In this document: positions 913 to 42,666 of the stretch, piece by piece
Layout of the letters: each line of letters opens with the position of its first letter
How positions within the stretch are numbered: the first letter of the stretch is position 1
DNA from: Candidatus Brocadiia bacterium
GTDB lineage: Bacteria; Planctomycetota; MHYJ01; WSZJ01
DNA: 42,666 nucleotides
NCBI GenBank assembly: GCA_013360825.1
Contig: JABWAY010000001.1
Span: forward strand, 1 to 42,666
Direction: 5' to 3'
Notes under the pieces: generated by a model
Told to the model about the DNA's origin: nothing
Seen by the model: only the letters and a program-made list of their open reading frames with translations
Database searches by the model: none
Made by a program: the position numbers and the translations under genes

Positions 913-2115
913 TCAGGACACCAGCCTCAGCAGCATCGCGATCGCTGCCCGCGCACGACGACGCTTCACCTCGATCTCCAGCCTCTCCTTCCCGAACTCC
1001 AGGATCTCGTCGTACCCGTTGGCGTAGGGGAGGGGGAAGTCCACGACATGGTGCGGCGTCACCCCCACCCCCTCCAGCTTCTCACCCTTCGTGTAGAACT
1101 GCGCGTTCTGGACCGGCACGAGCAGGCAGGAACCGTCGGACAGCTCCACAAACGTCGACCCCAGCACCGCCCCCTCCGTCGTCCGCCCGACCGTCGGGCC
1201 CAGGTCCTCGTCCATGAAGACCCAGGTGAAAATCTCCTTCGCCGACCGCGACCGGTCGTCCACGAGCAGCACCACGGGGCGGTCCCAGGCGCCGGTCCGG
1301 AACAGCCCGAGAATCGCATTCATCACCAGCGGCGAACCCCCGCGCCCACGGATGTCGAGGAGAAGGCCGTCGCAGTCCTCGAACTTCTCCGTCATCGCCT
1401 TCGAGACCGTGCCGTAAATGAGCGGCGTCAGGAAATGCCAGGTGTGCACGTACCCGAACTTCATCCCGCCATGCCGGATCACGCGCACCGAGTTCTCCGA
1501 GGCCTGCACCATCGAGATCGGCTCGGGCCGGATCGTCACCGTCCGGGACCGCCCCTTCTTCGACTCGATCACCAGCTCCACCGGCTCCTTCCCGTCCGCC
1601 GCCACGTACCAGAGCGGCGGCCACGGGAGCCCGGGGTCGCTTCCCGCCGCCGTCAGCCGCTCCGATGCCTTCGCCTCCACCCCGGCGATCCGGACCAGCC
1701 GGTCGCCGCGCCGGATCCCGGCCTTGTCCGCAGGACCGCCTTCCAGGAGGTTGCGCACAAACAGCTTCCCGTCGACCTCCACCGCCTCAAACCCCACCTG
1801 CGGGGTCGGCTTTCCGCCCATCTCCGGCACGAAATGATCCTGGTAGGCCTCCTTCGGGATCAGCACCAGGTGCGAGACCCCCAGCTCCCCGAGCATCCGG
1901 TTCGTGATCCCGATCAGCTCCTCCTGCGTCTTCGCCTTCTTCGCCAGCGGCCGGTACTCCTCCTTGAGCGCCGCCCAGTCGCGGCCGTTCATCGTCTTGT
2001 CGTAGAACCGGTCGCGCGTCGTCCGCCACGCCTCGTCGAACGTCTTGATCCTGGGCTTTTCGGCAAGGGCGGGAAGTGCCAGTGCTGCGGCGAGGACGAC
2101 GGTCAGAAGGCGCAT
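913..2115 (-). CDS. S41 family C-terminal processing peptidase with PDZ domain, secreted
   Basis: Within track ORF 913..2238. The internal ATG at 2115 gives the signal peptide MRLLTVVLAAALALPALA. PDZ-like stretch GGPADKAGIRRGDRLVRIAG. S41 signatures DIRGRGGSP and VDDRSRSAKEIF (Ser/Lys dyad region). Confidence 0.85.
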   Translation of the reverse strand: MRLLTVVLAAALALPALAEKPRIKTFDEAWRTTRDRFYDKTMNGRDWAALKEEYRPLAKKAKTQEELIGITNRMLGELGVSHLVLIPKEAYQDHFVPEMGGKPTPQVGFEAVEVDGKLFVRNLLEGGPADKAGIRRGDRLVRIAGVEAKASERLTAAGSDPGLPWPPLWYVAADGKEPVELVIESKKGRSRTVTIRPEPISMVQASENSVRVIRHGGMKFGYVHTWHFLTPLIYGTVSKAMTEKFEDCDGLLLDIRGRGGSPLVMNAILGLFRTGAWDRPVVLLVDDRSRSAKEIFTWVFMDEDLGPTVGRTTEGAVLGSTFVELSDGSCLLVPVQNAQFYTKGEKLEGVGVTPHHVVDFPLPYANGYDEILEFGKERLEIEVKRRRARAAIAMLLRLVS

Positions 2116-2778
2116 CGGTCGTGTCTCCGTGGGTTCGTGCAGAGTGATACGGCTGTCGGGCCGGAATGATGGGTTCAGGCGGACGGGGGCAGGTGCGGGG
2201 TCAGGGCGGCAGGGAGAGGGCTCCCGGGCGTGGGACACCTCGGGACCCGGGTAGTGGGCCCCCGATCCCGGTGATCCGACCCCTCATCGCTTTCCCAGAA
2301 CCTTCCTGCCCTCCCCGTCGTCCAATCCCCACACCCTTACGGAGCCCCTCCCATGCGTCGTTTCGCCGGTCCGGCCCTTCTCCTCGCCCTCGCCGCCGGG
2401 GTCGCGCGCGCCGAGGATTCCACCGTTCTCGAGGGCCGTATCGACGCACTGCTCGGCCCCGATGTCGGCGCTTCGCGAGAAGCCGTGTTTCGACCGCGGC
2501 CGCGAACTGTGCCGTCGGATCGGGGAGAGGAAAGGGAAGTTCAGCCAGGTGGGGGAGAGCGAGGTTGGTCCGCGATCGGGGGAGGCTGAGCCCTGGGAGC
2601 GGAACCTGATGCGCGTGGAGGCCGTCGTAGAATCGGTCTTCATCTGGTAGGGCGGTCCTGCGCTCTCTGGCTCGGAGCTCATCAGCAGCCTGCGTCGTGC
2701 CGGCTCGCCTCCCGCCTGGAATGCGGTGACCGAGGACGCCTGGTGGGACGCCGGGCGGGCGGGGGAGCGCCCCGCCGC

Positions 2779-3426
2779 TCAGTACTTCACCGAGCACCCG
2801 TACGGCTTCGACTCGGTCACCGGCGCCGGCTTGCCCGACAGCACGGCGTCGAGCACCTCGACCACGTAGTTCCGGGCCCCGGCGATGTCCGCCGAATTCG
2901 CCGTCGGCCGGTCGTCGATCGCCCCGCCGTATACGATCGCCCCCTGCGGGTCGATCACCACCATCTGCGGCGTCGTCTTCGCGTCGTAGAGCCGGCCGAC
3001 CTTCCCGTCCACGTCCAGCAGCATCGCCGTCGGCGCGGCCCCGATCGATTTCAACGTCTCCGTCCACCCCGCCGGCTCCTGGTGCCCCTGCTTTCCGGGG
3101 GCCGATGAGCAGATCGAGAGCCAGACCACCCCCTTCCCCGCGTACGTCTTCTGAAGCCCCTGCATGTTCCCCGACCCGTAGTGCTTTTTCACGAACGGGC
3201 ACCCGTGGTTCACCCACTCCAGCACGACCCATTTCCCGCGATAGTCCGCCAGCGCGTGGGATTTCCCGGTGTTGTCGGGAAGCGAGAACGCCGGCGCGGC
3301 CGCGGCGGAGATGTTGTCCTGTGGGGCGGGGGGGGAAGTGGTGTTCCCATTTCCGTTCTCGGGCGACCCGCAGCCGGCGAGGAGGGCGGCGGACAGGGAG
3401 AGGGCGAGGGTGAGGGAGCGCGTCAT
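2779..3426 (-). CDS. thioredoxin-fold (redoxin/TlpA-like) lipoprotein
   Basis: Lipobox LLAGC after the signal sequence. Thioredoxin-fold core KWVVLEWVNHGCPFVKKHY and C-terminal YGCSVKY. The start overlaps the upstream gene's stop (ATGA at 3423-3426). Confidence 0.85.
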   Translation of the reverse strand: MTRSLTLALSLSAALLAGCGSPENGNGNTTSPPAPQDNISAAAAPAFSLPDNTGKSHALADYRGKWVVLEWVNHGCPFVKKHYGSGNMQGLQKTYAGKGVVWLSICSSAPGKQGHQEPAGWTETLKSIGAAPTAMLLDVDGKVGRLYDAKTTPQMVVIDPQGAIVYGGAIDDRPTANSADIAGARNYVVEVLDAVLSGKPAPVTESKPYGCSVKY

Positions 3427-21386: not shown

Positions 21387-24300
21387 ATGGCCGTCTGTCC
21401 GATCTGCGCGCTCGAGCATCCGGCCGGGGCGTGCGCGACCGTCATCGCCGGGACCGTCTCCCCGGGCGGGACCGTCCTCCCCTCGGGAGGTTCCGCGGGG
21501 GAGGGGGCGGCGGGGCTGCGCGCGGGTTCGCGGGTCGGCGCGCGCTACGAGATCGTGTGCCTCCTCGGTCGCGGGGGGATGGGGGCCGTCTACCGCGCCC
21601 GGGATCTGACCCTCGGCCGGCAGGTCGCGCTCAAGGTCCTCCTCGGGGCCGGCGTCGCCGGAGAGGATGAAATCGCCCGCTTCCGCCTCGAAGCCTCCGC
21701 CCTTGCCTCCCTCGCCCATCCCGGGATCGTTCCGGTTTTCGACTCCGGGCAGGAGGACGGGAGGCCGTATTTCGCTATGGAGCTTGTGGAGGGCCGCTCT
21801 CTCGAAGCGGTGTTGAAGACGGAGCGGATCGGGCTCGAGCGGGGGCTGGGGATCATCCGGGATGTGGCGCGGGCGCTGGCGTTCGCGCACGGGCGCGGGC
21901 TGGTCCACCGGGATGTGAAGCCCGGGAACATCCTCCTCGACGCGGCGGGGGCCGCGAGGCTGACGGACTTCGGCCTGGCGCGACGCATCACGGAGGCGAG
22001 CGGGCTGACGCTGTCCGGCGCCGTGCTCGGGACGCCGGCGTACATGGCTCCGGAACAGGCACGCGGGGATGCGCGGGGGGCCGATGCGCGGTCGGACGTC
22101 TACTCGCTCGGCGCCGTGCTCTACCAGCTCCTGACCGACGAGCCGCCCCACCGGGGCGCTTCGCTCGTCGAAATCCTGCGCTCTGCCGCCGAGGACGATC
22201 CCGTCCCGCCGCGCCGACTCGCTCCGCGGACTCCGCGCGACGTGGAGACCCTCTGCCTCCGCGCTCTGGCCCGCGAACCGGGACGCCGCTACCCGGACGC
22301 CTCGGCGTTCGCGGACGACATCGACCGGTTCCTCCGCCGCGAACCGATCCTGGCGCGCCGACCCTCTCCCGTCTATCGCGCGCTGCGGTGGGTGCAGCGG
22401 AACCCCGTCCCCGCCGCGGCCCTGGCCGCCATTCTCTTCGGCCTCCTCCCCTGGGGGGCGTGGGCCTGGTCCCGGCCGGGGGAGGTCACCATCGAGGTCA
22501 CATCGCGGGGCCTCCCTGTATCCGGCGCGGTGGTGACGCTCGGCGACCGGACGCTCGCGCCCGGCGGCGGCGGCGCGCGCGGCCGCATTCCCGCCGGTAC
22601 CCACCGCGTCCTCGTCCGCGCCCCCGGGTACCGCGAGAGCGAACGGGCCCTCACCGTCACCCGCGGCGGTACCCACCACCTCCAGATTCCCCTCGACCGC
22701 GAGCAGGGCATCTTCGAACTCGAGGTCCAGCCGGCGGGGGGAAGCGTCTACGTCGACGGGGTGGACTTCGGGTCCCGCCTCCGGGGGTTCGCGGTGGACA
22801 CGGGGGTGCGGGAGATCGTGGCGCGGAAAGAGGGACGTCATGATGCGTTCCTGGACTGGGAAGCGCGGGTGGGCGAGCGGACCGAGGGATACCTCCACCT
22901 GCCCGAGGCCTGTCCCTGGTCCCGGCGGCTCCGCGGTGACAATCACTGGATCTCCTGGGTCGGCGACGCCGACGGCGATGGACGGCAGGACCTCATGTAC
23001 CGGAATTTCGGTTCGCATGTCCTGGTCTCCCCCTGGGACGGGCGCGTCCTCGGCACCGTCCATCTGGGGACGACCACCATGCGTCCCTCCGAACTCGCCG
23101 ACCTGGACGGGGACGGCGTGAAGGATCTGGTCGCGCAGTGGGTCGATCCGGAGGACGGAGCGCATGTGGAGGCGTGGTCGGGCGCCGTCGACCCGGGCCG
23201 CGCGCTGCCGCAGGAACTCAGACCGCTCTGGAAGTGGCACCGTCCTGCCGACGCCGAAGTCAGCTTCGGGATCTGCTGGACCCGTCCGCTCGTCGTGGCC
23301 GCGGGGGCCGCACCGTCCCCGATGGTCATCACGACGTCGGACGTCCGCGACGAGATCCGGGGGAATGCCGGGCGGGACGGAACGCTCGCCTGGCGGACCC
23401 CCCTGGATGACTTCCCGCTCGGCAGCGTGGCGCTGTCCGGCCCGGACGGCCGCGCCCGGATCGTCGTCGCCTTCGCGGGCGCTCTCGTCGCTCTCGACGC
23501 CGAGACCGGGGCCGCGCTGTGGAAGGCCCCCGCCGGCATCGCCCCATCGCTCGAGGACGCCGGGTGGCACCCGCTCCTCCGGCGAGGCGCCCTCGACGGC
23601 CGACCGTTCCTCGTCGCCGCAGAACTCGACGGCGAGCCGGGGGACGACATCGCACTCGCCGCCTGCGACGCGGGGCAGGGGAGGAGGACCCTCCTCGCCT
23701 TCTCGGGAAAGGACGGACGGCCGCTCTGGTCCGGGCCTGACCTGGCCTTGCTCAACGGCTGGGCCGAGGGGGTCGCGGACGTCAACGCCGATGGCACCCC
23801 CGACTTCTTCGTACGCGCCCGCGATCCCGAGCGCACCGCGCTGGTCGACGGACGGTCGGGACAGACGCTCTGGAGCGCCCCCGGCCCCCTCTGGCCCGCG
23901 CTTCTGGACCTCCCCGGCGGCGTCACGCCGGTGACGGTCGGTCCGGAAGCGATCGAAATCCGGAGTCCGGCCGACGGGACGGTCCGGCACCGGATGGTGC
24001 AGCGGGCCGCGCGCCGGGGGACCGCGGTGGCAGCGGACTGGGACGGGGATGGCCAGCGGGAGGTGGTTGCGTCGTGCGCGGATGGCACCGTCGCCGCCTG
24101 GGCGGCCGATGGGACGCGCGTCGGCTCCTGCCTCCTTCCCGGTCCGGTCCGGCTGCATCCCGGGCCCGATGCCGGGGGGGATGGATTTCCGGACATGCTC
24201 GGTCTCGGCGAGGTCTTCGCCGTCCTGACCGGTCCCGCGGTGGCCTGGTCCCGCACGTCCCGCATCGCCATCAACGCCCGCCCCCTCGTCGCCGATTTCT

Positions 24301-25388
24301 CGGGCGACGGACGCCCGCAGGTCGCGGTCTACGCGGATTTCGGGGACGACCGGTCCCTCGAGATCCTCGATGCGCGCGACGGCCGTCGACGCGCCCGGGC
24401 CGGCCCCGCCCGCTGCTTCCAGCCCCCCGTCCTCCTCCCGCGCGCCGACGGCGGCTCGGACCTGGTCGCCCTTCTCCAGGACGGCGCCGACGCCGAACTC
24501 GTCCACCTCTCCGGCCGCGACGCCGCCGTCCTCCGCCGCGCACCCGGTCCTCTCGCCTACGGCCAGCCCGGTCTTGCCGACCTCGACGGAGACGGACGCC
24601 CGGAAATCCTCTCCATCGGCTGGCAGACTCCCCACGCGCTCCGCGTCCTCGACTCGTCCACCTGGGAGGTCCGCTGGACTCTCCCCGGGTCAGACGGATG
24701 TTTCCACGCCCCGCTCTTCGTCGATCCCGGCACCTCCCAAGGTCCGGGCCTCCTCATCCGGTTCCTCGACGGCCGCTTCCGGTTCGCCTCCCCGCGCGAC
24801 GGCGCCGCCCGCTGGGAAGTCTCCCTCGGTCCAGGCCTGGTCGGACCTCCTGCTCTCCGGGACCTCGACGGGGACGGCCGGCAGGAGATCGTCACGACCG
24901 CCATCGCCTCGGGGTGCGACCTCGTCGCGATCCGCGCGGAGGACGGGCAGGAACTCTGGCGGTCCGAAGGATTCGGGGGGTACGCGACCACACCCGTCTT
25001 CTGCGAGCCCGACGCGACCCGCTCCGTCGCGATCCTCGTGGCTTCGCGCCCCCGCGGCCTCGCCCTCCTCGACGCGGGCGGCCGCCCCCGCTGGACCTGG
25101 GTCCCGCCTCCCGCCCTCGGGAAGCCCGTCGCGTGCGACGCAGGTCCGGGAGTCGCCGACCTTGACGGGGACGGGCGTCTCGAAGCGCTCTGCGCGTTCA
25201 TGGACGGGACGCTGCGCATCTTCGACCTTCGCACGGGCACCCTCCTTCGCACCTGGCGGACCGGTGAAAAGCGCATGGAGGGCGGGTGGGCGATCCTGGA
25301 TCTCGAGGGCGACGGACGGCTGGAGATCCTGCTCGCCGGGGGGGACGGGTCGCTGACGTGCCTGCGGACGCCGCGGGGGGGAAAGTAG
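21387..25388 (+). CDS. Ser/Thr protein kinase with TM helix, PEGA-like domains and FG-GAP/VCBS-type beta-propeller repeats
   Basis: GRGGMGAVYRA, ALK, HRDVKPGNILL, DFG and APE. TM helix PAAALAAILFGLLPWGAWAW. Two PEGA-like units (VLVRAPGYRESE; IVARKEGRHD). At least 9 D.(D/N/S).DG motifs follow (DADGDGRQDL, DLDGDGVKDL, DWDGDGQREVV, DLEGDGRLEIL...). Confidence 0.9.
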   Translation: MAVCPICALEHPAGACATVIAGTVSPGGTVLPSGGSAGEGAAGLRAGSRVGARYEIVCLLGRGGMGAVYRARDLTLGRQVALKVLLGAGVAGEDEIARFRLEASALASLAHPGIVPVFDSGQEDGRPYFAMELVEGRSLEAVLKTERIGLERGLGIIRDVARALAFAHGRGLVHRDVKPGNILLDAAGAARLTDFGLARRITEASGLTLSGAVLGTPAYMAPEQARGDARGADARSDVYSLGAVLYQLLTDEPPHRGASLVEILRSAAEDDPVPPRRLAPRTPRDVETLCLRALAREPGRRYPDASAFADDIDRFLRREPILARRPSPVYRALRWVQRNPVPAAALAAILFGLLPWGAWAWSRPGEVTIEVTSRGLPVSGAVVTLGDRTLAPGGGGARGRIPAGTHRVLVRAPGYRESERALTVTRGGTHHLQIPLDREQGIFELEVQPAGGSVYVDGVDFGSRLRGFAVDTGVREIVARKEGRHDAFLDWEARVGERTEGYLHLPEACPWSRRLRGDNHWISWVGDADGDGRQDLMYRNFGSHVLVSPWDGRVLGTVHLGTTTMRPSELADLDGDGVKDLVAQWVDPEDGAHVEAWSGAVDPGRALPQELRPLWKWHRPADAEVSFGICWTRPLVVAAGAAPSPMVITTSDVRDEIRGNAGRDGTLAWRTPLDDFPLGSVALSGPDGRARIVVAFAGALVALDAETGAALWKAPAGIAPSLEDAGWHPLLRRGALDGRPFLVAAELDGEPGDDIALAACDAGQGRRTLLAFSGKDGRPLWSGPDLALLNGWAEGVADVNADGTPDFFVRARDPERTALVDGRSGQTLWSAPGPLWPALLDLPGGVTPVTVGPEAIEIRSPADGTVRHRMVQRAARRGTAVAADWDGDGQREVVASCADGTVAAWAADGTRVGSCLLPGPVRLHPGPDAGGDGFPDMLGLGEVFAVLTGPAVAWSRTSRIAINARPLVADFSGDGRPQVAVYADFGDDRSLEILDARDGRRRARAGPARCFQPPVLLPRADGGSDLVALLQDGADAELVHLSGRDAAVLRRAPGPLAYGQPGLADLDGDGRPEILSIGWQTPHALRVLDSSTWEVRWTLPGSDGCFHAPLFVDPGTSQGPGLLIRFLDGRFRFASPRDGAARWEVSLGPGLVGPPALRDLDGDGRQEIVTTAIASGCDLVAIRAEDGQELWRSEGFGGYATTPVFCEPDATRSVAILVASRPRGLALLDAGGRPRWTWVPPPALGKPVACDAGPGVADLDGDGRLEALCAFMDGTLRIFDLRTGTLLRTWRTGEKRMEGGWAILDLEGDGRLEILLAGGDGSLTCLRTPRGGK

Positions 25389-29288: not shown

Positions 29289-30326
29289 ATGATCCGACTG
29301 GCTGCTGCCGTCTGCGCCCTCTCGCTCTTCCTCACCCCCTCCCGGGCGGACGAGGTCACCACCGCCGACGGGCGCAGGCTCGTCGGCGTGATCCAGAACG
29401 AGACGGAGGACGAGCTGACCGTCCTCACCTGCAAGGACGGCCCGATCCGCGTGCTGATCTCCGACATCCGGTCGCGCAAGGCGGGGAAGACCGCGTACGA
29501 CGACTTTGAGGCGAAGAAGGGGGAGTTCGAGGACACGGCCGAGGGGCACCTGAAGCTGGGGAACTGGTGCCGGGACAAGGGGCTGGCCTGGGAGGCACGG
29601 CTCGAATGGCGGAAGGCCGTGGCGCTGGACCCTGAGAGCGAGGCGGCGCGGAAGGCGCTGGGTGACCGGAAGGGGAAGGAAGGGTGGACGACGTTTGAGG
29701 ACCAGCAGAAGGCGAAGGGGCTGGAGTTCTTTGAAGGGAAGTGGCTGGCGCCGGACGCGATCGCGAAGGTGATGCGGGCCCGGCACCCGGCGCAGGGGTG
29801 GGTGCTGACGGCCACGTACCGGGGGGACACCGACGCGGCGTTCCTCGAGTCGTGGGGGGAGAGGACGAAGGAGGCCTCGAAGTTCATGTGGGAGCTGACG
29901 GAGGGGCAGATGTACGTCGCGCAGATCACGATCACGGACAACGGCGGCCCGGCGGATTTCACGATCGTGAACAAGGATCTGACGAAGGCGAAGCCCGGGG
30001 AGTACTACGCCATCACGATCGGGAACACGATCGAGGCCCCCGGGAAGATCCTTGCGTACACGTTCTTTCACGAGCTGATCCATCTCAAGTACCGGCGTCC
30101 GGAGCACTGCGACAACTGCCGGCACTGCATCATGAGCAGCGATCCCACCGCGTCGCGGCTCTGTGACGACGGCGACCACAAGTCCCGCCAGGCGAAGTCC
30201 TGCTGGGGCGCGATCCGCGAGTTTCACAGGAAGGATCTCGCGCTTCAGCCCCTCACGCGAAAGGCGAAGATCGGGCCCGTGCCCGACACCAAGGTGATCG
30301 TGAAGGACCGTCCGCCGGCGAAATAG
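29289..30326 (+). CDS. secreted HExxH-motif protein with Cys-rich C-terminus (putative Zn metallopeptidase-like)
   Basis: Within ORF 29115..30326. ATG 29289 gives the signal MIRLAAAVCALSLFLTPSRA. FFHELIHLKY (HELIH at 30069-30083) is followed by CDNCRHC...C...C. Confidence 0.65.
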   Translation: MIRLAAAVCALSLFLTPSRADEVTTADGRRLVGVIQNETEDELTVLTCKDGPIRVLISDIRSRKAGKTAYDDFEAKKGEFEDTAEGHLKLGNWCRDKGLAWEARLEWRKAVALDPESEAARKALGDRKGKEGWTTFEDQQKAKGLEFFEGKWLAPDAIAKVMRARHPAQGWVLTATYRGDTDAAFLESWGERTKEASKFMWELTEGQMYVAQITITDNGGPADFTIVNKDLTKAKPGEYYAITIGNTIEAPGKILAYTFFHELIHLKYRRPEHCDNCRHCIMSSDPTASRLCDDGDHKSRQAKSCWGAIREFHRKDLALQPLTRKAKIGPVPDTKVIVKDRPPAK

Positions 30327-30390
30327 CGTTCTCGCCGTCCATCCCTGCCGGCTTCGGTCACGCTGGGTCCCTTTCCCCCGCATTCGTTTC

Positions 30391-30460
30391 CCTTTGCACT
30401 TTTCCCTTTGCACTTTTCCCTTTGCACTTTTCCGTTTGCACTTTTCTGTTTGCAGTTCTC
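30391..30460. repeat. five tandem copies of a 14-bp unit (CCTTTGCACTTTTC), the last two diverged
   Basis: Copies at 30391-30404, 30405-30418 and 30419-30432 are identical. 30433-30446 reads cgtttgcacttttc, and 30447-30460 reads tgtttgcagttctc. A degenerate copy precedes them (30377-30390). The array is intergenic, 50 nt upstream of the DUF2277 ATG. Confidence 0.95.
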
Positions 30461-30509
30461 CTTGTTCCATGTCCCTCCCCCCCCCACCATCCTGGAGCTC
30501 TCTCTCCCC

Positions 30510-30794
30510 ATGTGCAGAAGCATCCGCACCCTCTTCAACTTCCTCCCCCCCGCAACCGACGCCGAAATCCGCTCAGCTTCGCTGCAGTTCGTCCGGAAAC
30601 TCAGCGGGTTCCAGTCGCCGTCGCGGGCGAACGCGGAGGCCTTCGAGCGCGCCGTGGAGGAAGTCTTCGGCTCGGCCCGGCGGCTGGTCGATTCGCTCTC
30701 GACAGTCTCGCCTCCGCGGGATCGCGCGGTCGAGGCGGCGCGGGCGAAGGCGCGAACCGCGGCTCGTTTCGGGGCGCCGCCACGCGAGGCGTGA
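30510..30794 (+). CDS. DUF2277 family protein
   Basis: Within ORF 30408..30794. ATG 30510 gives MCRSIRTLFNFLPPATDAEIRSASLQFVRKLSGFQSPSRANAEAFERAV, matching my memory of the DUF2277 N-terminus (MCRNI..L.NF.PPAT..EI..AALQ(F/Y)VRK.SG). Confidence 0.8.
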   Translation: MCRSIRTLFNFLPPATDAEIRSASLQFVRKLSGFQSPSRANAEAFERAVEEVFGSARRLVDSLSTVSPPRDRAVEAARAKARTAARFGAPPREA

Positions 30795-31050
30795 GTCCGG
30801 GCGGTGGGCCGTCGATCATGCGGGATGATCCGCAATCGGCGAGGCCGGCGTTGCCATCGGATGGGGACCGGCTTCTACGACGCTGCTCCTCGCCGCTACC
30901 CGGCACATCCCGGCCGGGACTCCCCGAGTCGCCGCACGCGCTGTGGCGCGGCAGCGCCCGAATTCGCCTGCCCAAGATCCGGTGCCACTGCTTGAGAGGC
31001 GCTTTCGATTCCCACTGATCTACAAATTTAGGTCTCGCTAAGTCCTAAAA

Positions 31051-32199
31051 ATGATGTATAAAGGTCTTATGTACTCCCGAATGCTGGCTCCTCCCGAGGG
31101 GAGTTTCCTTCTGCTCGGGCCGCGGGGCGTTGGAAAGACCGCCTGGCTGCGCAGCCGGCTCACAGATGCGCTGTACTTCGATCTCCTCCATCACGAAACC
31201 TGGACCGAATTGCTCGCCTCGCCGGCTCGCCTCGACGAGAGGATCCCGAAGTCCCACCGCGGATGGGTCGTACTCGATGAGATCCAGCGCCTGCCCCTCC
31301 TCCTGAACGAAGTTCACCGGCTCATCGAGTGCCGCGGCCTCCGTTTCGCCCTCAGCGGTTCAAGCGCCCGCCAACTCCGCCGCCGAGGTGTCAATCTTCT
31401 CGCTGGCCGCGCCCTGACCAGAGCGATGCACCCCCTGACTGCTCACGAACTCGGCGCCGACTTTGATCTCGTGAAGGCTGTCCAGTTTGGCTGCATGCCC
31501 CGGGCCTGCACCGATCCCGCCCCTCGCGACTACCTCAAGAGTTACGTCGCCACATGGCTGACCGAGGAGATCCGGGAAGAAGGACTTGCCAGGAACCTTG
31601 GGAGCTTTGCGAGATTCCTCGAGGCCGCCAGCTACTCCCAGGGAGCCGTCCTGAACATGGCGTCCGTCGCCCGCGATTGCTCCGTCAACGCCAAGGTCGT
31701 GCAGGACTACTTCGAGATCCTGGAAGACCTGCTCGTGGCCGTCCGCCTTCCCGTGTTTTCCCGACGCGCCAAGCGACGGATCGCCCATCACCCCAAGTTC
31801 TACTTCTTCGACGCCGGTGTGTTTCAGGCTGTGCGCCCGCGCGGTCCGCTCGACGCGCCATCCGAAATCCGGGGACCGGCGCTCGAAACGCTCCTCCTCC
31901 AGCATCTCCGCGCCTACAACGACTACGGCAACCTCGGGTACGCCCTTCACTACTGGAGAACACCACAGGAACAGGAAGTCGATTTCGTCCTCTATGGGGA
32001 ACGCGGCCTGCGCGCATTCGAGGTGAAGGCGTCCGAGCGCGTGCGAAGCGAGGACTTTGCAGGGTTGCATCAATTCCAGGAGAAGTTCCCGGAGGCACGA
32101 GCCTGCCTGCTCCACCTGGGCAGCAGGCGATGGCGTGAGCGCGGGGTCGACGTCGTCCCGTTCGCGGACGTCGCGATGGATCTGGAAACCTGGCTCTGA
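31051..32199 (+). CDS. AAA+ ATPase with DUF4143 C-terminal domain
   Basis: Walker A LLLGPRGVGKTA, Walker B VVLDEIQ, and a DUF4143-like LLVAVRLPVFSRRAKRRIAHHPKFYFFDAG. Preceded by an unusually AT-rich ~50-bp stretch. Confidence 0.85.
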   Translation: MMYKGLMYSRMLAPPEGSFLLLGPRGVGKTAWLRSRLTDALYFDLLHHETWTELLASPARLDERIPKSHRGWVVLDEIQRLPLLLNEVHRLIECRGLRFALSGSSARQLRRRGVNLLAGRALTRAMHPLTAHELGADFDLVKAVQFGCMPRACTDPAPRDYLKSYVATWLTEEIREEGLARNLGSFARFLEAASYSQGAVLNMASVARDCSVNAKVVQDYFEILEDLLVAVRLPVFSRRAKRRIAHHPKFYFFDAGVFQAVRPRGPLDAPSEIRGPALETLLLQHLRAYNDYGNLGYALHYWRTPQEQEVDFVLYGERGLRAFEVKASERVRSEDFAGLHQFQEKFPEARACLLHLGSRRWRERGVDVVPFADVAMDLETWL

Positions 32200-32435
32200 T
32201 TCGCCGCGATGGCGAACTTCAGGGGGTCAGTCCTGATCTGACTGAGAAACAACCCGGGGCTCGCGAATCGGCAATCGGGGACCCGGCGCGAAACCTCACT
32301 GGGCGATTGAGCGCGACCTCGACAGGCGATTGACCTGTCCCGGCGTGCAGCGCCCTCGTTCCCGCCCACAGGTCCGGCACGCCGCCACCGTTTCCCTGGT
32401 CATAAGCCCCGCGGCGTCGCTTACGATCCTCCCCG

Positions 32436-36594: not shown

Positions 36595-37833
36595 CTACTG
36601 GAACGTCATCGCCGCGTAACTGACGAGTTCCCGGTTCTCGATGTCGGCGAACCGGTCGTACCGGACGAGCGATCCGCGGGAAGCGTCGGTGGCGGCGAGG
36701 AGCGTGGTGATCGCCGACAGGCCGCAGATCCTGCGCCAGTCGCCGACGTCGGAGATCGACCGGAAGAACCCCGCCGCGTCGACGGCCGCGGCGCGTGCGA
36801 GGGAAGCGCGGTCCTCATCCTCGATTTTCTTCAGGAGGTCGCCGGTCAGCGGTCCCTCGTCCCCGAATTTCGCCCCGACGTGCGCGAGGTCGACGCCGCC
36901 GACCAGGCAGACCTTCCGGCCCTGCATCGTCTTCCTCAGCGCGGCCACGAACCCCGTGACGACCGGATCGGCGAGCGGGTCGGTCTTCTTCAGCACATGC
37001 TCATGCATCGAGCTGACCAGCACGGGGACGATCCGGAACGGCTTCCGGCCCATCAGCCACCGCAGACAGACCGCCTGGAATTCGATCGAGTGTTCGTCGC
37101 GGTGGTACCACTCGTCCGCGAGCAGGTCCCCCCCCGTCCAGCGCCGGGCGAGCTCGTCCACGAACTCCGTATCGACCGGCGCGGGGCCGAGCGGCGTTTC
37201 GTAGGCTTTCTTCGTCGCCGTGTACAGCGTCCGCGGACTCTTGTGCGCCGTCCCCAGGATCACGAACGTGTCCGCGTCGCACCCCCCTGCCAGCGCCCCG
37301 TAGGCGTGGGCATAGCACGGTCCCCCGCGGTGGAAGTCGATGTGCGGCGCGAGAATCGCCCTGACCGGGCCTTTCTTCACCCGCCGCGGCGGCTCCGTCC
37401 CCGGCCCGCGCTCGTGCGCCCACTGCGCCCTGAGGAACCCCGGGAGCTTCTTCCGGTCCCCCGCATAAGCCCCCGTGTGCCGCGCGGGGCGCGTCGCAGA
37501 CTCCCGGAACTCCCGCGTGACCCGCTCCCGCCGCCCTTCGAACTCCGACGAAACCAGAAACCCCGCACGGTCCATCTCCGCCACGAACCCGGCGATCTCT
37601 TCCGTCGAAACCTCCCGTCCCGACGCCCGGCGGAGCTGCTCCGTCATCTCCGCGACCGTGTGGCGGCCGTCAAAGAACTGCAGCAGCCAGGCGCCGTACA
37701 TCGTCAGCGGCCAGGGCGACTCCGCGATCCCCATCGGGTCGTGCAGCAGGAGGATCTCCTGCCCGTTCGCCCGCACCGTCTCGGGCTCCACGGCGCGGAG
37801 AAGGGGGCGTTCAGGGGGCGAAGGGGGGTTCAT
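36595..37833 (-). CDS. MEMO1/AmmeMemoRadiSam system protein B family protein with ~130-aa N-terminal extension
   Basis: ILAPHIDFHRGGPCYAHAYGAL, FVILGTAH, DEHSIEFQ and GGVDLAHVG match the Memo-like family. The N-terminal LLLHDPMGIAESPWPLTMYGAWLLQFFDGRHTVAEMTEQL...EEIAGFVAEMDRAGFL looks like a PqqD/RRE-type module. Confidence 0.85.
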   Translation of the reverse strand: MNPPSPPERPLLRAVEPETVRANGQEILLLHDPMGIAESPWPLTMYGAWLLQFFDGRHTVAEMTEQLRRASGREVSTEEIAGFVAEMDRAGFLVSSEFEGRRERVTREFRESATRPARHTGAYAGDRKKLPGFLRAQWAHERGPGTEPPRRVKKGPVRAILAPHIDFHRGGPCYAHAYGALAGGCDADTFVILGTAHKSPRTLYTATKKAYETPLGPAPVDTEFVDELARRWTGGDLLADEWYHRDEHSIEFQAVCLRWLMGRKPFRIVPVLVSSMHEHVLKKTDPLADPVVTGFVAALRKTMQGRKVCLVGGVDLAHVGAKFGDEGPLTGDLLKKIEDEDRASLARAAAVDAAGFFRSISDVGDWRRICGLSAITTLLAATDASRGSLVRYDRFADIENRELVSYAAMTFQ

Positions 37834-38216
37834 GTGCGGACTCCGTGGGAGGCAGGCGCAGCCGGGACGTCCGGTGCGCCCAAGATAGCAGACGGGGCGG
37901 GGCGGGGGGAGCGGGGGAGGCGTGGCGCTGGTTCAATCGCGAATGCGGCAGCACCGTTGGAGCTTCCGCACCCTGATGCCGCGGCGGAATGTAGCGCTCG
38001 TGCCCGGTGCGTCCGACGGTGGGTAACCATTCACCCACTCCCGCCCGTCCTGTGTCATTCGCCTGGCGGAACCTGGAGGCGTGGCTGGGGCGCATACGAC
38101 GGTCGCGACGCCCTGGGGGCGCTCCCGCGGGGGGTTCATCGCGAATTCCGGAAAATCCCGGACGTTTTGGGGTCGGCGAGGTCAGACTTGGGGAAGGGAG
38201 CGGAGATTGGGGGGGG

Positions 38217-38908
38217 ATGAGAGGGGTTGAGATGCATGGGAATGATGACGCGGGTGGAGAGCCGAGAGCCGAGAGCCCAGAGCCAAGTGACTTCCTGGTC
38301 CGCTCGGTCGCCGATGTCGTCGATGTCCTGAGACGCCGCCACCGTTTGCCCGAAGCCGACGCGAAGGATCTCGCGCAGGACGCCTGGATACGCGCACAGG
38401 GAGCGGCGACGCGAGGAGTGGAGATCCGCGACGCCACGGCCTACCTGCTCACGGTCGCGCTCAGGCTTCAACGGACCCGGCGCAGGGGCGAGGCGAGCCG
38501 CTGCCGCCGCGAAGCGCTCGTTGCACGGCGGGACATCGTGACTGCGGACCCGTCGGGGGACGCCGTCCAGGCGGACCGCTCCGTCCTCGTCTGGGACCCG
38601 CTCGCGCTCGCGCCCTCCGCGCTCCAGGTCTCCGCGGCGCTCCCCCTCGGCGGCGCCAACGCGCTCGAATTCTCCGCCGTCGTCATCGGCGCCGCCGGCG
38701 CCATCCAGACCCTCCTCCAGGCCCAGGTCAGCAACGACGGGATCAATTGGGCCAACGCCGGGTCGTCCGTCCAGCTCCTCGCCTTCGGGAACACCGCCGC
38801 CCCGCGCTCATCACCGGCCTCGGCGCCCGGTACTTCCGGATCGCCGCCCAGAACCAGACCGCGAACGCCGTCGTCTTCATCGTCGCCGCCCGACTCTCGT
38901 GCGCTTAG
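38217..38908 (+). CDS. sigma-70 region-2-like N-terminus fused to discoidin/jelly-roll-like C-terminus; apparent 1-nt frameshift near 38795-38812
   Basis: In the frame of ORF 38007..39131, starting at ATG 38217 or 38232. LRRRHRLPEADAKDLAQDAWIRA...ATAYLLTVALRLQRTRRR resembles ECF sigma region 2, with no region 4. This is followed by ...QVSNDGINWANAGSSVQLLAFGNTAAP. After a C-run at 38800-38803 the protein-like reading continues in the +2 frame: LITGLGARYFRIAAQNQTANAVVFIVAARLSCA, ending at TAG 38906-38908. Confidence 0.45.
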
Positions 38909-38918
38909 GAGGTTGCCC

Positions 38919-39131
38919 GTGATCGAGTCGCTCCTCGTGTTGAGAGCAGGTCTTCGACCCGGACGTCGGGAGAACAGGAGAGGCGTGCCGCGGGTGGAGG
39001 GACGGGTGCCCGTCGAGGAGAGCGTAATGGCGTCGGAGGTGGAGGCGGTGAGGGTGTGGATGCTGGGAGACGTCGGGGAGATCAGTGAATTGCTGATAGA
39101 ATCCAGCAGGCCGACAGGAGGTCATCGATGA
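38919..39131 (+). CDS. small hypothetical ORF (70 aa from GTG; 34 aa if ATG 39027)
   Basis: AGGAGG lies 6 nt upstream of GTG 38919. The stop TGA overlaps the ATG of the 422-aa gene (ATGA at 39128-39131). The sequence is not strongly protein-like in its first half. Confidence 0.3.
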   Translation: MIESLLVLRAGLRPGRRENRRGVPRVEGRVPVEESVMASEVEAVRVWMLGDVGEISELLIESSRPTGGHR

Positions 39132-40396
39132 GTCAGACGTCGCCGCAGGACTACCTTCAACAGGCCTTGCTCGCGGGAGATGCGCGGCGCGCAGCCAGCA
39201 TGTTAATGAAGCTTCGCGATGGGCTGAAAGTCCTGACCCATAACGAAAGGGGAGTGAACGAATACGAAGCGACTTCTATTGACATCACAGCCCAATTGGC
39301 TCAGACCAGACCGCCGATGCCATCTTCAAACCCGGAGGCAATTGCCACCTACTCCAGGCTCACTTGGAATGGACATCCCGCGCCTCACCCAAGAGCCTTG
39401 GCCGCGCGCATCGGGGAACCTGAACGAGATGTTTCCCTTCTGCTGCAGGATGCAGCTGGTGGTTGGGGCCCTCCGGTTCCCAAGAAGGTGCCTTGCGTAC
39501 AGGCATTTGCAGCATGGGCACAGCACTTCAAGATAGAGATAATACCTGCCGCCAGCGGAGGCGATGGCAAGGCGTACCTTGCAAAGCGGATTCCTGGATT
39601 GAACGCAGTGACCACTGAGATCTGCGATGAGCTTCGTTTTCTTGCCGACATGATGGGGCAATGCCAGACGGAGGAATTCCTTTGGAATGGCGTCAGGGTC
39701 ATCTTGGGAGTTGGCCAGGTCAGGGGAAGCGGACCCAATACGATTGTCCTTGCTACTTCCTGCGGCGTGGGGATTGGAGTAACCGCGGTCGCTGGTAGAG
39801 GTTCCTCCGCCTATGCCGCAGGCGGGACTGCGGACGCAGCTTCCGCGCAGGCTGTGCCGTTTGCGGAGGGATCAGGGAATGCAGCGATGGCATGCGCCGG
39901 AAACAGTTCGCAGATCCTCGGTAACTCACCAGGTGGAATGGCTGTGGCGATCGGCGATCCTGCGAGTGCGCACGGTGGAGGTGGTGGCCGGGGCCGTGAG
40001 GGAGGATTTGCCATCGCAATGGGTGGTGGTACATGCGTGGCTGTCGGCGGGCCGGGCGGTAGTAGCGCTAAGGGGAGGGGGGGCAACGGCGGGTCGGCCA
40101 GAATCGTGCAGGGAAGTAAGCCTGGGTACGTTGAGGGAGGCCAAGGTGGTGACGGAGTCAGTGGGGGTTCCGGAGGATGGGTCGATGTGAATGATGCCGA
40201 TCGTGGGCCCCAAGTTGTCAGGGTTGGCAAGGGTGGAAAGGGAAGTGGCGGCGACGATGGACCTGATGGGCAGCACGACGAGATCCCGGGTGACCTTGCA
40301 GGAGGGCCCAACGCCTTGCCGCCCGCGGCACCGCCTGAAGACGAAGGTACAGCGGCAGCCGCTCGCAAGCGATGGGAAGAGTATCGAAATCGATAG
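39128..40396 (+). CDS. hypothetical protein with Gly-rich, solenoid-like C-terminal half (no signal peptide)
   Basis: 422-aa track ORF. Its codon usage differs clearly from neighbours, with many A/T third positions. The N-terminal ~210 aa are globular and unrecognised. The C-terminal half has SGNAAMACAGNSS..GGMAVAIGDPASAHGGGGG..GGFAIAMGGGTCVAVGGPGG..GGNGGSA..GGQGGDGVSGGSGG..GKGGKGSGGDDG repeats and ends in a charged tail. Confidence 0.7.
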   Translation: MSQTSPQDYLQQALLAGDARRAASMLMKLRDGLKVLTHNERGVNEYEATSIDITAQLAQTRPPMPSSNPEAIATYSRLTWNGHPAPHPRALAARIGEPERDVSLLLQDAAGGWGPPVPKKVPCVQAFAAWAQHFKIEIIPAASGGDGKAYLAKRIPGLNAVTTEICDELRFLADMMGQCQTEEFLWNGVRVILGVGQVRGSGPNTIVLATSCGVGIGVTAVAGRGSSAYAAGGTADAASAQAVPFAEGSGNAAMACAGNSSQILGNSPGGMAVAIGDPASAHGGGGGRGREGGFAIAMGGGTCVAVGGPGGSSAKGRGGNGGSARIVQGSKPGYVEGGQGGDGVSGGSGGWVDVNDADRGPQVVRVGKGGKGSGGDDGPDGQHDEIPGDLAGGPNALPPAAPPEDEGTAAAARKRWEEYRNR

Positions 40397-40406
40397 GAGG
40401 ACGACC

Positions 40407-40823
40407 GTGAATTGGGCGACAGCAGCCAGATTACGATCGCCGAGGATTCTTGAACCGACTGGTGGTCGGGTCAGCACCGCCAAGATTCAGCTTCTCATCC
40501 TCGGCCTGCGCACTGGGCCTCTGGCGGTCCTCGTGGGCTCGCTATCATCCTGCGCGTCAGAACTGCCGCGGGACGCCGCATCGAATCGACGATCGGGTTG
40601 CGGCGCCGCGGATTCCAGAGTGGAACTCCCCCTGGGAAACGAGCCGGGCGTATTCGGCGTCATCGACCCGATTTGTCAAATGGAGATCGATCATCAGGTT
40701 CTCCGGAGACATCCGAAACTCACAGTGGATTGGGAGGGCAAAGTCTACGTGTTCTGCAACGTCGATTGTGCCCAGAGATTTCGCGAGAAAGTGGCACGAC
40801 AGCAGCGGAACCTGGGAAGGTGA
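40407..40823 (+). CDS. YHS/TRASH-type metal-binding-domain lipoprotein
   Basis: Within ORF 40191..40823. GTG 40407 lies 6 nt after AGGAGG, which overlaps the TAG stop of the previous gene. Leader ...LAVLVGSLSSC (lipobox-like). The C-terminal VIDPICQMEID....L.V.WEGKVYVFCNVDCAQRF fits the YHS pattern DP(V/I)C.M......G..Y.FC...C...F. Confidence 0.7.
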   Translation: MNWATAARLRSPRILEPTGGRVSTAKIQLLILGLRTGPLAVLVGSLSSCASELPRDAASNRRSGCGAADSRVELPLGNEPGVFGVIDPICQMEIDHQVLRRHPKLTVDWEGKVYVFCNVDCAQRFREKVARQQRNLGR

Positions 40824-41272
40824 GTGTTTGTACGCGGCGGCGGAAACGGGTGCTCTACGGCCCGCCCCACCTGACCGAGTCGCGGCCACCGGAACGCAGC
40901 AGTCCTGGCGGTCGGTCGATGTCTCGACCCATGCTCGCACGCCGGGTGTGGCTCGGCTGCTGACAGCAGGCGATCCGTTCCTGCGGGCCGTATCGTCTGG
41001 AGGTTGACTGGGAAGAGGCGCTGGGCGGGACCCCGGGGGTGGCGGCGTCGTCTCGGCACGGGATCGAAGGCTGAGGTTGGTGGGACCGGCATCGATGCGG
41101 CATTGGTGCCGCTCCGATGCCTGTTCTCTGCCGTTCCTGCGAGGGCGACCCGCCTCCCGGGCGGGAACGCCCGGCCGGGCATCCGGAACCCGGGGATCGA
41201 CCGCCGGGAGCCCTTCCGCGTCCCGTTCAGCCCGAATTCCGGAATCTTCCCCATTCAGGGTGGCGGTCCCCC

Positions 41273-41278
41273 TATAAT
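41273..41278 (+). promoter_or_regulatory. possible -10 element (perfect TATAAT) upstream of rluB
   Basis: TATAAT lies 62 nt upstream of ATG 41340 in otherwise very GC-rich DNA. There is no good -35 at 16-18 bp spacing. The 10-bp palindrome ATTCCGGAAT (41236-41245) sits just upstream. Confidence 0.2.
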
Positions 41279-41339
41279 CCTCCCCCCCAGAACCCGGGCG
41301 GCACGCGTGAGCGTCCCCCCCACACTCGAGGCTTTCACC

Positions 41340-42666
41340 ATGTTGCAGCGTCTTCAGAAGATCCTTGCCCACGCCGGCGTCGCTTCTCGCAGAGAGTGCG
41401 AAGAGATCATCGCCAGCGGCAGGATCACCGTGAACGGGAAGGTCGTGACGGAGCTCGGGTCGAAGGCGGACCCGGAGAAGGACGACGTGCGCTGCGACAG
41501 CGAGCCGGTGAAGACGGAGAAGAAGGTGTATTTCCTTCTCAACAAGCCGACGCGGGTGCTCTGCACGAACGAGAAGTCGCACGGGCAGAAACGGGTGATC
41601 GACCTGTTCCCGGCGATTGCGCAGCGCCTCTACACGGTCGGCCGGCTGGACGCGGAGTCGACGGGGCTGATCATCGTCACGAACGACGGGGAGCTCGCCA
41701 ACCACATCGCGCACCCGCGGTACGGCGTGGAGAAGACGTATGCCGTTTCGGTCCACGGGTGGCTGGAGGGACCGGCGCTGGAGAAGCTCCAGAAGGGTGT
41801 CTGGCTGTCGGAGGGGAAAACGGGGCGCGCGAAGGTGCGTATTCTGAAGCGGACGCGCCAGATGACGCACCTCGAGATCACGATTCACGAGGGGAAGAAC
41901 CGGGAGCTCCGTCGGATTTTCGCGAAGGTCGGGCACCCTGTGCTGGCCCTGCGCCGGATCCAGGTCGGGAATCTCCTGCTCGGGCCGCTCAAGGAGGGGC
42001 AGTGGGTCCCGATCGACCGGGAGACGCTTCTCCGCCGCCTGGGTCTTGACCCGGAGACGATGGAGCTGGCGGGCGAGCGTGCGGTGGCGGGGAAGGGGAA
42101 GAAGGCCGGGAAGAAGCCGGTGGTGAAGGAGGTCGAGGAGGAGGTCGAGATCGGCGAGGGTGCCGAGGACACGGAGTTCTCGATGGAGGCGGAGGCGGCG
42201 CCGGTGGAGGTGAAGAAGGCGAAGGGGAAGGGCAAGGGGAAGGCGAAGGAGGAGCCCGTTGCCGAGGTGGAGGTGCCGGACGACGAGGAGGTCCTGGAGG
42301 CGGAGGTGGAGGGCGAGGACGAGGAGCTGATCGCGGCGCCGGTGGAGAAGAAGAAGGGGAAGGGGAAAGCCGCGGTGCCGGCGCCGGTCGTCGGGGAGGA
42401 GAAGGACGAGGAGGCTGAGGAGGAGGACGAGCTGACGGACGAGATGCTCGCCGAGATGGTCGACGACGAGCTGGGGGTGGGCGAGGACGACGGCGACGAC
42501 GACGAGGATGAGGACGACGACGACGGCGCGGAGGAGGAGTTCGAGGCGGACGGCGAGGATGCGCCCGACGACAAGCCTGCGGTCGCCGCAGAGGGCGGTC
42601 GCGGGCCCGGCCGCGGCGGTGCCCCGGGTGGAGACCGTGGTGCGCGCCGTGGAGCGCCTGCGGGGG
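41340..42666 (+). CDS. rluB: pseudouridine synthase RluB-type (S4 domain + RsuA/RluB catalytic domain) with long acidic/Lys-rich tail, partial (3' end beyond window)
   Basis: MLQRLQKILAHAGVASRRECEEIIASGRITVNG (S4 domain), VGRLDAESTGLIIVTNDGEL (catalytic Asp motif), KTYAV and GKNRELRRIF. Open to the window end, so it is absent from the ORF track. Confidence 0.9.
   Translation, partial: MLQRLQKILAHAGVASRRECEEIIASGRITVNGKVVTELGSKADPEKDDVRCDSEPVKTEKKVYFLLNKPTRVLCTNEKSHGQKRVIDLFPAIAQRLYTVGRLDAESTGLIIVTNDGELANHIAHPRYGVEKTYAVSVHGWLEGPALEKLQKGVWLSEGKTGRAKVRILKRTRQMTHLEITIHEGKNRELRRIFAKVGHPVLALRRIQVGNLLLGPLKEGQWVPIDRETLLRRLGLDPETMELAGERAVAGKGKKAGKKPVVKEVEEEVEIGEGAEDTEFSMEAEAAPVEVKKAKGKGKGKAKEEPVAEVEVPDDEEVLEAEVEGEDEELIAAPVEKKKGKGKAAVPAPVVGEEKDEEAEEEDELTDEMLAEMVDDELGVGEDDGDDDEDEDDDDGAEEEFEADGEDAPDDKPAVAAEGGRGPGRGGAPGGDRGARRGAPAG

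Follow-up and report, generated by a model that had tools for sequence, protein, structure and literature searches.

A 5'-truncated copy of a constant-flank, variable-core cassette in a Candidatus Brocadiia contig carries a gene pair for a Gly-rich, predicted beta-solenoid protein and a YHS-type lipoprotein-like protein

Results

The window, that is, the whole 42,666-nt stretch of DNA analyzed here, is one complete contig of a metagenome-assembled genome (MAG) named "Candidatus Brocadiae/Brocadiia bacterium" (Planctomycetota; locus tags HUU15_). A sequence-only reading had singled out positions 38217 to 40823 as a tightly coupled, compositionally distinct cassette of four genes, consisting of a sigma-region-2/discoidin-like fusion (gene i), a 70-aa open reading frame (ORF; gene ii), a 422-aa Gly-rich protein (gene iii), and a YHS-domain lipoprotein (gene iv). 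All four ORFs were found at the coordinates claimed, but our comparisons revealed a different organization: the block belongs to a cassette in which constant flanks enclose a variable core, the cassette is present at least twice in this genome, and the copy in the window is a 5'-truncated orphan. The second copy lies on another contig of the same genome, identified by blastn and designated L003 (in our labels, L denotes contigs and P denotes proteins). The features of the block are as follows.

38115 to 38153, + strand: left copy of an imperfect 39-nt direct repeat that brackets the block together with the right copy
38217 to 38571, + strand: fragment of an extracytoplasmic function (ECF) sigma gene comprising region 2 and a linker (Pfam Sigma70_r2), fused in frame to the next part
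38572 to 38908, + strand: copy of a jelly-roll gene (discoidin/carbohydrate-binding module [CBM]-like, DUF6385-like), 5'-truncated and frameshifted, as judged from homologues and DNA alignment
38572 to 39227, + strand: left constant block, comprising the jelly-roll remnant, the spacer, and codons 1 to 33 of gene iii (88% identity over 662 nt to L003 positions 514 to 1173)
38919 to 39131, + strand: "gene ii," a 70-aa ORF that is most likely a non-coding spacer with the putative expression signals of gene iii
39128 to 40396, + strand: gene iii, 422 aa (AlphaFold2 [AF2] model, homologues)
39228 to 40827, + strand: variable low-GC core, comprising most of gene iii and gene iv (no similarity to the L003 core, positions 1174 to 3117)
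40407 to 40823, + strand: gene iv, 138 aa, lipoprotein-like and YHS/TRASH-type, with a GTG start 6 nt past AGGAGG
40828 to 40942, no strand assigned: right constant flank, starting 5 nt past the gene iv stop (90% identity over 115 nt to L003 positions 3118 to 3232)
41206 to 41244, + strand: right copy of that imperfect direct repeat (39 nt), lying 96 nt before the start of the rluB-like gene

The constant-flank, variable-core architecture emerged from the comparison of this block with its counterparts at other loci, and our confidence in it is high. Between the flanks, the L003 core carries unrelated genes of 232, 220, and 91 aa together with ~330 nt, and the left breakpoint between constant and variable sequence falls ~33 codons into gene iii. 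The left block also aligned to three further contigs (L007, L012, and L006). In an all-versus-all blastp comparison, gene iii and four gene-iii-like proteins (L003-232aa, P0009 from L012, L006-395aa, and P0014 from L007) were similar only over their first 24 to 55 aa, where the five share a handle sequence (MSQxSPQDYLQQALLAGDARRAA...). Besides the two copies of this genome, four further metagenomic loci carry the handle on unrelated C-termini, in each case at lower GC. At intact loci, the constant part consists of a gene for a 107-aa protein, a gene for a jelly-roll protein, a spacer of 145 to 350 nt, and the opening ~35 codons of the gene that follows; the variable core consists of the rest of that gene and one or two downstream genes, most of whose products have an export signal or a membrane anchor. 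The gene that follows the variable protein differs from locus to locus, its product having a lipobox-like N-terminus in the window, a hydrophobic segment ending in LLAAGC in L009, a signal-like N-terminus in L012, and an N-terminal transmembrane segment in L003, and the partners carried by the other cores were unrelated to gene iv by blastp. Upstream of its constant genes, L004 additionally has a gene for a tail-collar, fibre-like protein (PHROG E 1e-18 to 1e-20). Degenerate copies adjoin IS66/rve transposases (L004 and L007), the L007 copy being itself degenerate, and the copy in the window lacks both the upstream 107-aa gene and the jelly-roll N-terminus. Neither the handle nor the 107-aa protein had any domain match in Pfam, NCBIfam, PHROGs, or a PDB sequence search. 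Scans of genome contigs with the jelly-roll profile and with the Memo protein encoded upstream of the block returned nothing, nor did scans of metagenome contigs with the jelly-roll and beta-solenoid profiles. The cassette is best read as restricted to this planctomycete lineage. The right 115-nt flank showed no RNA structure (z +1.1 and +0.7), covariation, or coding signal, and it is probably a right homology arm or the end of an element.

The junction of constant and variable sequence is also a compositional boundary, with a GC break at this junction in all loci. In the window, the low-GC block from 39228 to 40827 has 60.4% GC against 69.4% for the contig, and the lowest-GC 1,600-nt window of the whole contig in a sliding-window analysis begins at 39201, ~3.5 standard deviations under the mean. 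The GC content at third codon positions (GC3) is 0.57 in gene iii and 0.63 in gene iv versus ~0.9 in host genes, in line with the shift in third codon positions noted earlier. At every locus, the GC3 of the variable genes lies between 0.55 and 0.73. Values of 0.88 to 0.95 are seen in the 107-aa and tail-collar genes of the constant part and in the L003 and L012 jelly-roll genes, whereas the jelly-roll genes at L004 and L006 have lower values (0.68 to 0.75). By GC and GC3 the block is compositionally foreign, as proposed from sequence alone, and the GC drop is real, but it reaches ~60% and not the 55% first estimated, and it extends over genes iii and iv and part of the spacer instead of the whole four-ORF block. 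Together, the homology breakpoints and the compositional break part genes iii and iv from genes i and ii, which contradicts the view of a tightly coupled four-gene module. Some of the signs on which that view had relied are nevertheless present. The TAGGAGG-N6-GTG arrangement occurs twice (38906 to 38921 and 40394 to 40409), and gaps of 383 nt upstream (37834 to 38216) and 516 nt downstream (40824 to 41339) surround the block. The ATGA overlap exists at 39128 to 39131, but the Met-Ser start conserved in gene iii is enough to produce it.

The sequence of the region was reproducible. A second assembly (GCA_026647635.1) contains the same sequence and differs at two homopolymer runs only (30486 and 38134), and Logan contigs from at least nine sequencing runs matched parts of the region at 100% identity; this agreement therefore indicates a genuine sequence and not an assembly chimera. 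A chimeric join at 38572 was considered separately and ruled out, as the two assemblies and contigs of several independent samples cross or reach this position. Contigs from at least nine samples confirmed the sequence up to 38606. The Logan contigs end inside the constant block on the left, no later than 38606, and the contig L002 begins at 39113; such breaks inside the left block are the expected behaviour at a repeat. Outside the block, the contig carries only ordinary chromosomal genes, with no tRNA, no secretion genes, and no integrase among the annotated neighbours, and the whole window had no Rfam match.

Gene iii was modeled by AF2 from a small alignment as three parts: two short helices (aa 6 to 30), a disordered linker (aa 30 to 119; pLDDT <50), and a beta-solenoid (aa 120 to 385; pLDDT ~88 to 93), the last being Gly-rich and Cys-containing and encoded at nt ~39485 to 40282. 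The constant N-terminal handle corresponds to aa 1 to 35, and no signal peptide was found in the protein. A k-mer search with gene iii retrieved only gene iii itself, and an exhaustive HMMER search retrieved six relatives. The closest of these, P0008 (514 aa), shares 42% identity with gene iii aa 120 to 420 (E 3e-39) and has a different N-terminus of 200 aa; P0010 and the short P0011-13 are weaker relatives. A profile of the handle found a single further sequence, a 62-aa fragment. In P0011-13, hydrophobic, signal-peptide-like N-termini immediately precede the conserved Cys-containing domain. The conserved cysteines and these short homologues with Sec signals therefore suggest that the solenoid domain probably works outside the cytoplasm; with gene iii having no signal peptide of its own, the 35-aa handle and linker would be the best candidates for an export, loading, or docking signal. 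P0010 (456 aa; JGI 3300078620) lies in a gene order that mimics the cassette layout (127 aa, 144 aa, a 225-nt gap, 456 aa, and 306 aa), which suggests a wider family with a different N-terminal handle.

Gene iv is preceded by the second TAGGAGG motif, and its product has an N-terminal hydrophobic stretch ending in a lipobox-like LSSC and a C-terminal motif of the form DPxC...FCxxxC. The Cys motif has the right spacing for YHS/TRASH proteins (PF04945 and PF08394); unlike those families, gene iv remains below the curated cutoff (YHS, E 1.5e-3, 18.9 bits against a cutoff of 30.3; TRASH matches weak) and encodes a lipoprotein-like product paired with a beta-solenoid protein. The solenoid/YHS pairing recurs: in L009 and L011, P0008 is followed by a 99-aa YHS protein with 31% identity to gene iv (E 7e-9). 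Gene iv and the L009 protein align at their N-terminal Cys and at all three Cys of the YHS motif; the L009 protein has a weak precomputed YHS match of its own and the LLAAGC segment mentioned above. The P0008/YHS pair is surrounded by GGDEF, SpoIIE, and STAS genes, a context unrelated to the window, and it again lies below the surrounding GC. Genes iii and iv are thus a real, co-inherited pair of foreign composition. Recurrence of the block as a unit had been put forward as a check; the variable domain of gene iii and the YHS lipoprotein do stand side by side elsewhere, but all four genes were never found together. We found no description of YHS lipoprotein partners, or of YHS proteins paired with a beta-solenoid protein, in the literature. 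Of four independent assemblies with P0008, the contigs L008, L009, and L011 start 77 to 80 nt upstream of its gene and L010 starts 14 nt upstream, which suggests that the junction immediately upstream of P0008 is a repeat or a strain-variable site.

Gene i had been taken for a single sigma/discoidin fusion ending at TAG 38906; instead, it joins two reading frames, and the real ORF reads through gene ii to 39131 (annotated by NCBI as a single 304-aa protein, HUU15_00150). In the sigma part, residues 33 to 92 aligned to positions 8 to 68 of the 71 positions of the Sigma70_r2 profile (E 6.4e-5; 23.1 bits versus a cutoff of 24), and partial NCBIfam SigJ/ECF matches fell in the same fragment. The protein thus aligns to region 2 in the manner of ECF (group 4) sigma-70 proteins, but it lies just under the Pfam cutoff, has no region 4 match in Pfam or NCBIfam, and from 38572 runs into an unrelated truncated gene, the jelly-roll remnant; it is a fragment and not a sigma factor. 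One Logan contig (L023, from SRR25608317) departs from the window after 38487 and continues in frame (RRR-DEEGEVLQP) for only 27 nt. This hints at a plausible intact ECF sigma gene in another strain, and the true rearrangement breakpoint may be at 38487. The possibility that the fragment had been copied from the ECF sigma gene beside the paralogous cassette was rejected (E 0.29).

Homology to jelly-roll genes starts only at 38572, and for this reason ~33 N-terminal codons and everything upstream are missing from the window copy. At five other loci, this gene encodes a standalone protein; the standalone homologues P0003-P0007 and the L012 copy are 125 to 143 aa long and have their own N-terminus (MSxxGCxCK). 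DNA alignment with the paralogues of L003 and L012 located an extra CG within 38803 to 38807 of the window copy, which frameshifts the gene; accordingly, the GC3 frame plot passes from frame 0 to frame 2 near 38800. The insertion was found in both independent assemblies and is therefore probably a real pseudogenising mutation. A programmed frameshift was rejected, as the intact paralogues simply lack the CG insertion. Gene i is therefore a rearrangement junction and a pseudogene chimera, not a designed fusion: the left end of the copy is joined to ECF sigma codons and the jelly-roll remnant has gained a frameshift. The match to DUF6385 was weak (E 5e-3 to 9e-3; 16.5 to 17.3 bits versus a cutoff of 26.8). 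An AF2 model of the paralogue P0003 (mean pLDDT 58) had Eph ligand-binding domain/CBM32 jelly rolls as its Foldseek neighbours (E ~1e-3; TM-score ~0.4), and on this modeled fold the label "discoidin-like" is plausible but unproven. The domain labels given earlier to genes i and iv therefore fit the Sigma70_r2, DUF6385, and YHS matches, all of which nonetheless fall under the Pfam cutoffs. A literature search on DUF6385 and on the accession numbers found nothing.

The 70-aa gene ii proposed earlier showed no coding signature and was broken or absent at related loci. Among the homologous copies of the window, L003, and L007, substitutions were spread evenly over the three codon positions (11, 9, and 11; 15, 12, and 11; and 11, 9, and 10). 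In L012, where the flanking genes are intact, a ~70-nt deletion leaves a stop after 24 codons of the gene ii frame, and an equivalent ORF is absent from L004, L005, and L006. The GC3 of gene ii is 0.70 versus at least 0.88 in the adjacent constant genes, Pfam, NCBIfam, and PHROGs contained no family match, and the first TAGGAGG is not conserved in L003. Judging from these patterns, gene ii is probably a non-coding spacer. RNAalifold gave no covariation support for a structured RNA in it. Within the spacer, it is the 3' end that is conserved; there, TGATAGAAT (39094 to 39102) and AGGAGG (39115 to 39120) lie 25 and 8 nt before the gene iii ATG; both are kept in the window, L003, and L012, and L007 has the variant TGATAAAAT. 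The former resembles an extended -10 element, which stands out in a genome of 70% GC, and may be a dedicated autonomous promoter for gene iii.

Direct repeats around the block had also been suggested as something to look for. An imperfect 39-nt pair that brackets the whole block was found at 38115 to 38153 and 41206 to 41244, 3,091 nt apart (30 of 39 positions match, with an exact 3' end, CGAATTCCGGAA). The score of the pair was 16.5 against a shuffle maximum of 14.5, and none of 300 Markov shuffles of the flanks reached 16.5. It could be an insertion or att-like scar, or it could reflect two similar promoter regions.

Several other features of the contig were recorded. A second low-GC islet (~30000 to 32200; 0.61 to 0.63) contains a DUF2277 gene (30469 to 30795) and a gene for an AAA_14/DUF4143 ATPase (31070 to 32200), and the C-homopolymer at 30486 differs in length between the two assemblies. 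Downstream of the block, a gene for an RluB-type pseudouridine synthase (41340 to 42665; S4 and PseudoU_synth_2) has a long, purine-rich, low-complexity C-terminal tail and runs off the contig end; at 42001 to 42500 it shows a GC skew of 0.44 and an AT skew of 0.39, and a 35-nt repeat occurs in it at 42195 and 42333. The Memo/AmmeMemoRadiSam-B protein encoded upstream (36595 to 37833, - strand) has an N-terminal extension of ~110 aa with a weak PqqD-like match (E 0.02), and the contig showed no radical-SAM or AMMECR1 partner next to it. A Ser/Thr protein kinase of 1,333 aa with PEGA, FG-GAP, and beta-propeller domains is encoded at 21387 to 25388.

Discussion

Our favored interpretation, to which we give about even chances, is that the region represents a second copy, truncated at its 5' end and partly decayed, of a polymorphic cassette that would encode an exported effector or tip together with a cognate lipoprotein. 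The narrower view that the two proteins form an effector/immunity pair is somewhat less likely than not. Homologous recombination between the left flank (656 nt) and the right flank (115 nt) would exchange the cores. In the window copy, the first ~90 to 119 codons of an ECF sigma gene have become attached to the left end, and the jelly-roll remnant is frameshifted. Gene iii would encode a Sec-independent exported protein whose 35-aa helical handle might be recognised by constant partner proteins for delivery or attachment and whose flexible linker would present the exchangeable extracytoplasmic domain; the co-swapped lipoprotein would then bind or neutralise the solenoid domain, in an immunity-like or receptor-masking role. 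The modular architecture is observed, and export, partner binding, antagonism, and expression of the orphan copy are inferred from it. A further extension, in which the handle would be read by the 107-aa, jelly-roll, and tail-collar proteins without a Sec signal, as a planctomycete-specific and undescribed delivery route, and in which YHS lipoproteins would be a new immunity class for new Gly-rich solenoid effectors, seems unlikely.

Polymorphic toxin systems are characterised by a constant N-terminus with C-terminal cassettes that recombine, by a cognate gene alongside, and by orphan copies (PMC3482391). The cassette described here resembles CdiA-CT/CdiI and Rhs-CT/RhsI (Zhang et al. 2012, PMC3482391) in that a constant N-terminal part is attached to unrelated C-terminal domains, a small downstream gene is swapped with the domain, and one C-terminal domain occurs on different N-termini. 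The composition of the variable module likewise differs from its surroundings, truncated or orphan copies lie near insertion sequence (IS) elements, and recombination in the flanks can be inferred. It differs in that the constant part is limited to ~35 aa and a disordered linker and matches no trafficking domain known so far; a signal peptide, PAAR, VgrG, LXG, WXG, FilH, RHS, and PVC peptidase are all absent, no variable domain matches a known toxin, and the partner is a YHS lipoprotein and not a member of a known immunity family. As already suspected from the sequence, the genes matched no described system, and searches of Pfam, NCBIfam, PHROGs, PADLOC, PDB sequences, and Foldseek were all negative in this respect. 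No trafficking or toxin domain was found, and we therefore did not file the cassette as a member of the polymorphic toxins.

Several observations weigh against an effector cassette. No toxin, enzyme, or trafficking domain was detected in the five variable proteins or their partners with Pfam, NCBIfam, PHROGs, PADLOC, or a PDB sequence search; a PADLOC match of L003-232aa to a methyltransferase (MTase) was at chance level (E 0.004). Foldseek searches of the gene iii model against PDB and BFVD gave no significant neighbour but only generic beta-helices (best E 0.07 to 0.7), and beta-solenoids are commoner among adhesins and tailspikes than among toxins. The short homologues P0011-13 have no YHS neighbour. 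Neither an empty site nor an allele with an alternative core was recovered at the window locus, and the cassette family is small, with ~6 loci, all on short contigs.

The rival that survives best, although we consider it unlikely, is a phage or tailocin receptor-binding module, in which gene iii would be the tip of a tail fibre or tailspike with an N-terminal anchor docking on the tail-collar, 107-aa, and jelly-roll proteins. The lipoprotein would then be a co-varying accessory, for instance one that masks the receptor or excludes superinfection, like Llp of T5, or one that assists assembly. Receptor-binding proteins with a variable tip behind a short conserved N-terminus are known, which counts in its favor, as do the tail-collar fibre gene upstream of the constant genes in L004, the beta-solenoid fold of the variable domain, for which tail fibre, capsid spike, and adhesin-like proteins were among the weak Foldseek matches, and the resemblance of the jelly-roll protein to carbohydrate- or ligand-binding modules. 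Phage receptor-binding proteins and their pairs with lipoproteins (such as T5 pb5/Llp) likewise share with the cassette a short N-terminus, a variable solenoid tip, and an adjacent, co-varying lipoprotein gene. The context and the database searches argue otherwise. No capsid, sheath, tube, baseplate, terminase, or integrase gene was found near any copy (on short contigs), neither the window nor L003 contains phage genes, the jelly-roll and 107-aa proteins had no relatives in 2.9 million viral contigs, and neither the sigma fragment nor the beta-solenoid (aa 120 to 422) was matched in 50,697 phage genomes. None of the 107-aa, jelly-roll, gene iii, and gene iv proteins was matched in PHROGs. The 90-aa disordered linker is long, and both it and the 232-aa variant are unusual for fibres; some of the variable partners are not lipoproteins; and tail-collar domains are also found outside phages. 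A plasmid collection queried with the beta-solenoid gave no match.

Extracellular contractile injection systems (eCIS) of the Photorhabdus virulence cassette (PVC) type offer another comparison. Their payloads have an N-terminal signal of at most ~50 aa, a flexible region, and a highly variable payload part, and are encoded downstream of tail-like genes, all of which parallels the cassette. Here, in contrast, no sheath, tube, baseplate, or PVC-metallopeptidase genes were seen, and each core brings a partner, whereas PVC payloads are usually without adjacent immunity genes (PMC3482391).

An envelope pair with no antagonistic role strikes us as improbable. In such a pair the solenoid would serve at the cell surface as a structural or adhesive protein, with the YHS lipoprotein as its metal-handling or maturation partner, and the variation would reflect niche adaptation. 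YHS and TRASH are metal-binding modules according to their Pfam descriptions, gene iv and the L009 protein share three conserved Cys, homologues with signal peptides occur without an immunity-like neighbour, and no toxin fold was found, all of which would suit such a pair. What it leaves unexplained is the presence of the same 35-aa handle and flanks on unrelated domains, the different exported partner in each core, and the IS-rich, decaying, multi-copy context.

We attach a low probability to the whole block being inert debris of a rearrangement so recent that genes iii and iv have simply not yet decayed. The 5' truncation, the chimera, the frameshift, the absence of the constant upstream genes, and the visible degeneration of other copies (L007) are what debris would look like. 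Genes iii and iv, however, are full length, with an intact start, a Shine-Dalgarno sequence, and conserved -10-like motifs, and the identity is 100% across independent samples and assemblies; moreover, orphan modules of polymorphic systems can still give immunity or serve as recombination stock (PMC3482391). Were the block only debris, it would still clearly illustrate that a rearrangement junction and a frameshift can be mistaken, during MAG annotation, for a "fusion protein" and a "coupled operon." A functional, translationally coupled operon acquired as one foreign unit (sigma/discoidin regulator, 70-aa, Gly-rich, and YHS lipoprotein genes) is scarcely credible: its four ORFs are open, closely spaced, and provided with Shine-Dalgarno-like motifs, and the sub-threshold domain matches agree with their labels, but gene i would require a frame change that the sequence does not contain, its halves are separate entities elsewhere and its region 4 is missing, gene ii lacks the signature of a coding sequence and is interrupted in an intact locus, L003 does not keep the first TAGGAGG, composition and homology breakpoints divide genes iii and iv from i and ii, and the four genes never co-occur elsewhere.

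Planctomycetes have unusual envelopes, and to our knowledge no inter-bacterial weapon or modular surface-display system has been characterised in this phylum. If the favored interpretation of a polymorphic cassette with an exported effector or tip and its cognate lipoprotein is true, the cassette would contribute a trafficking signal, an effector fold family, and, in the YHS lipoproteins, a partner or immunity family, all of them new, together with a compact handle that could be used in export tests.

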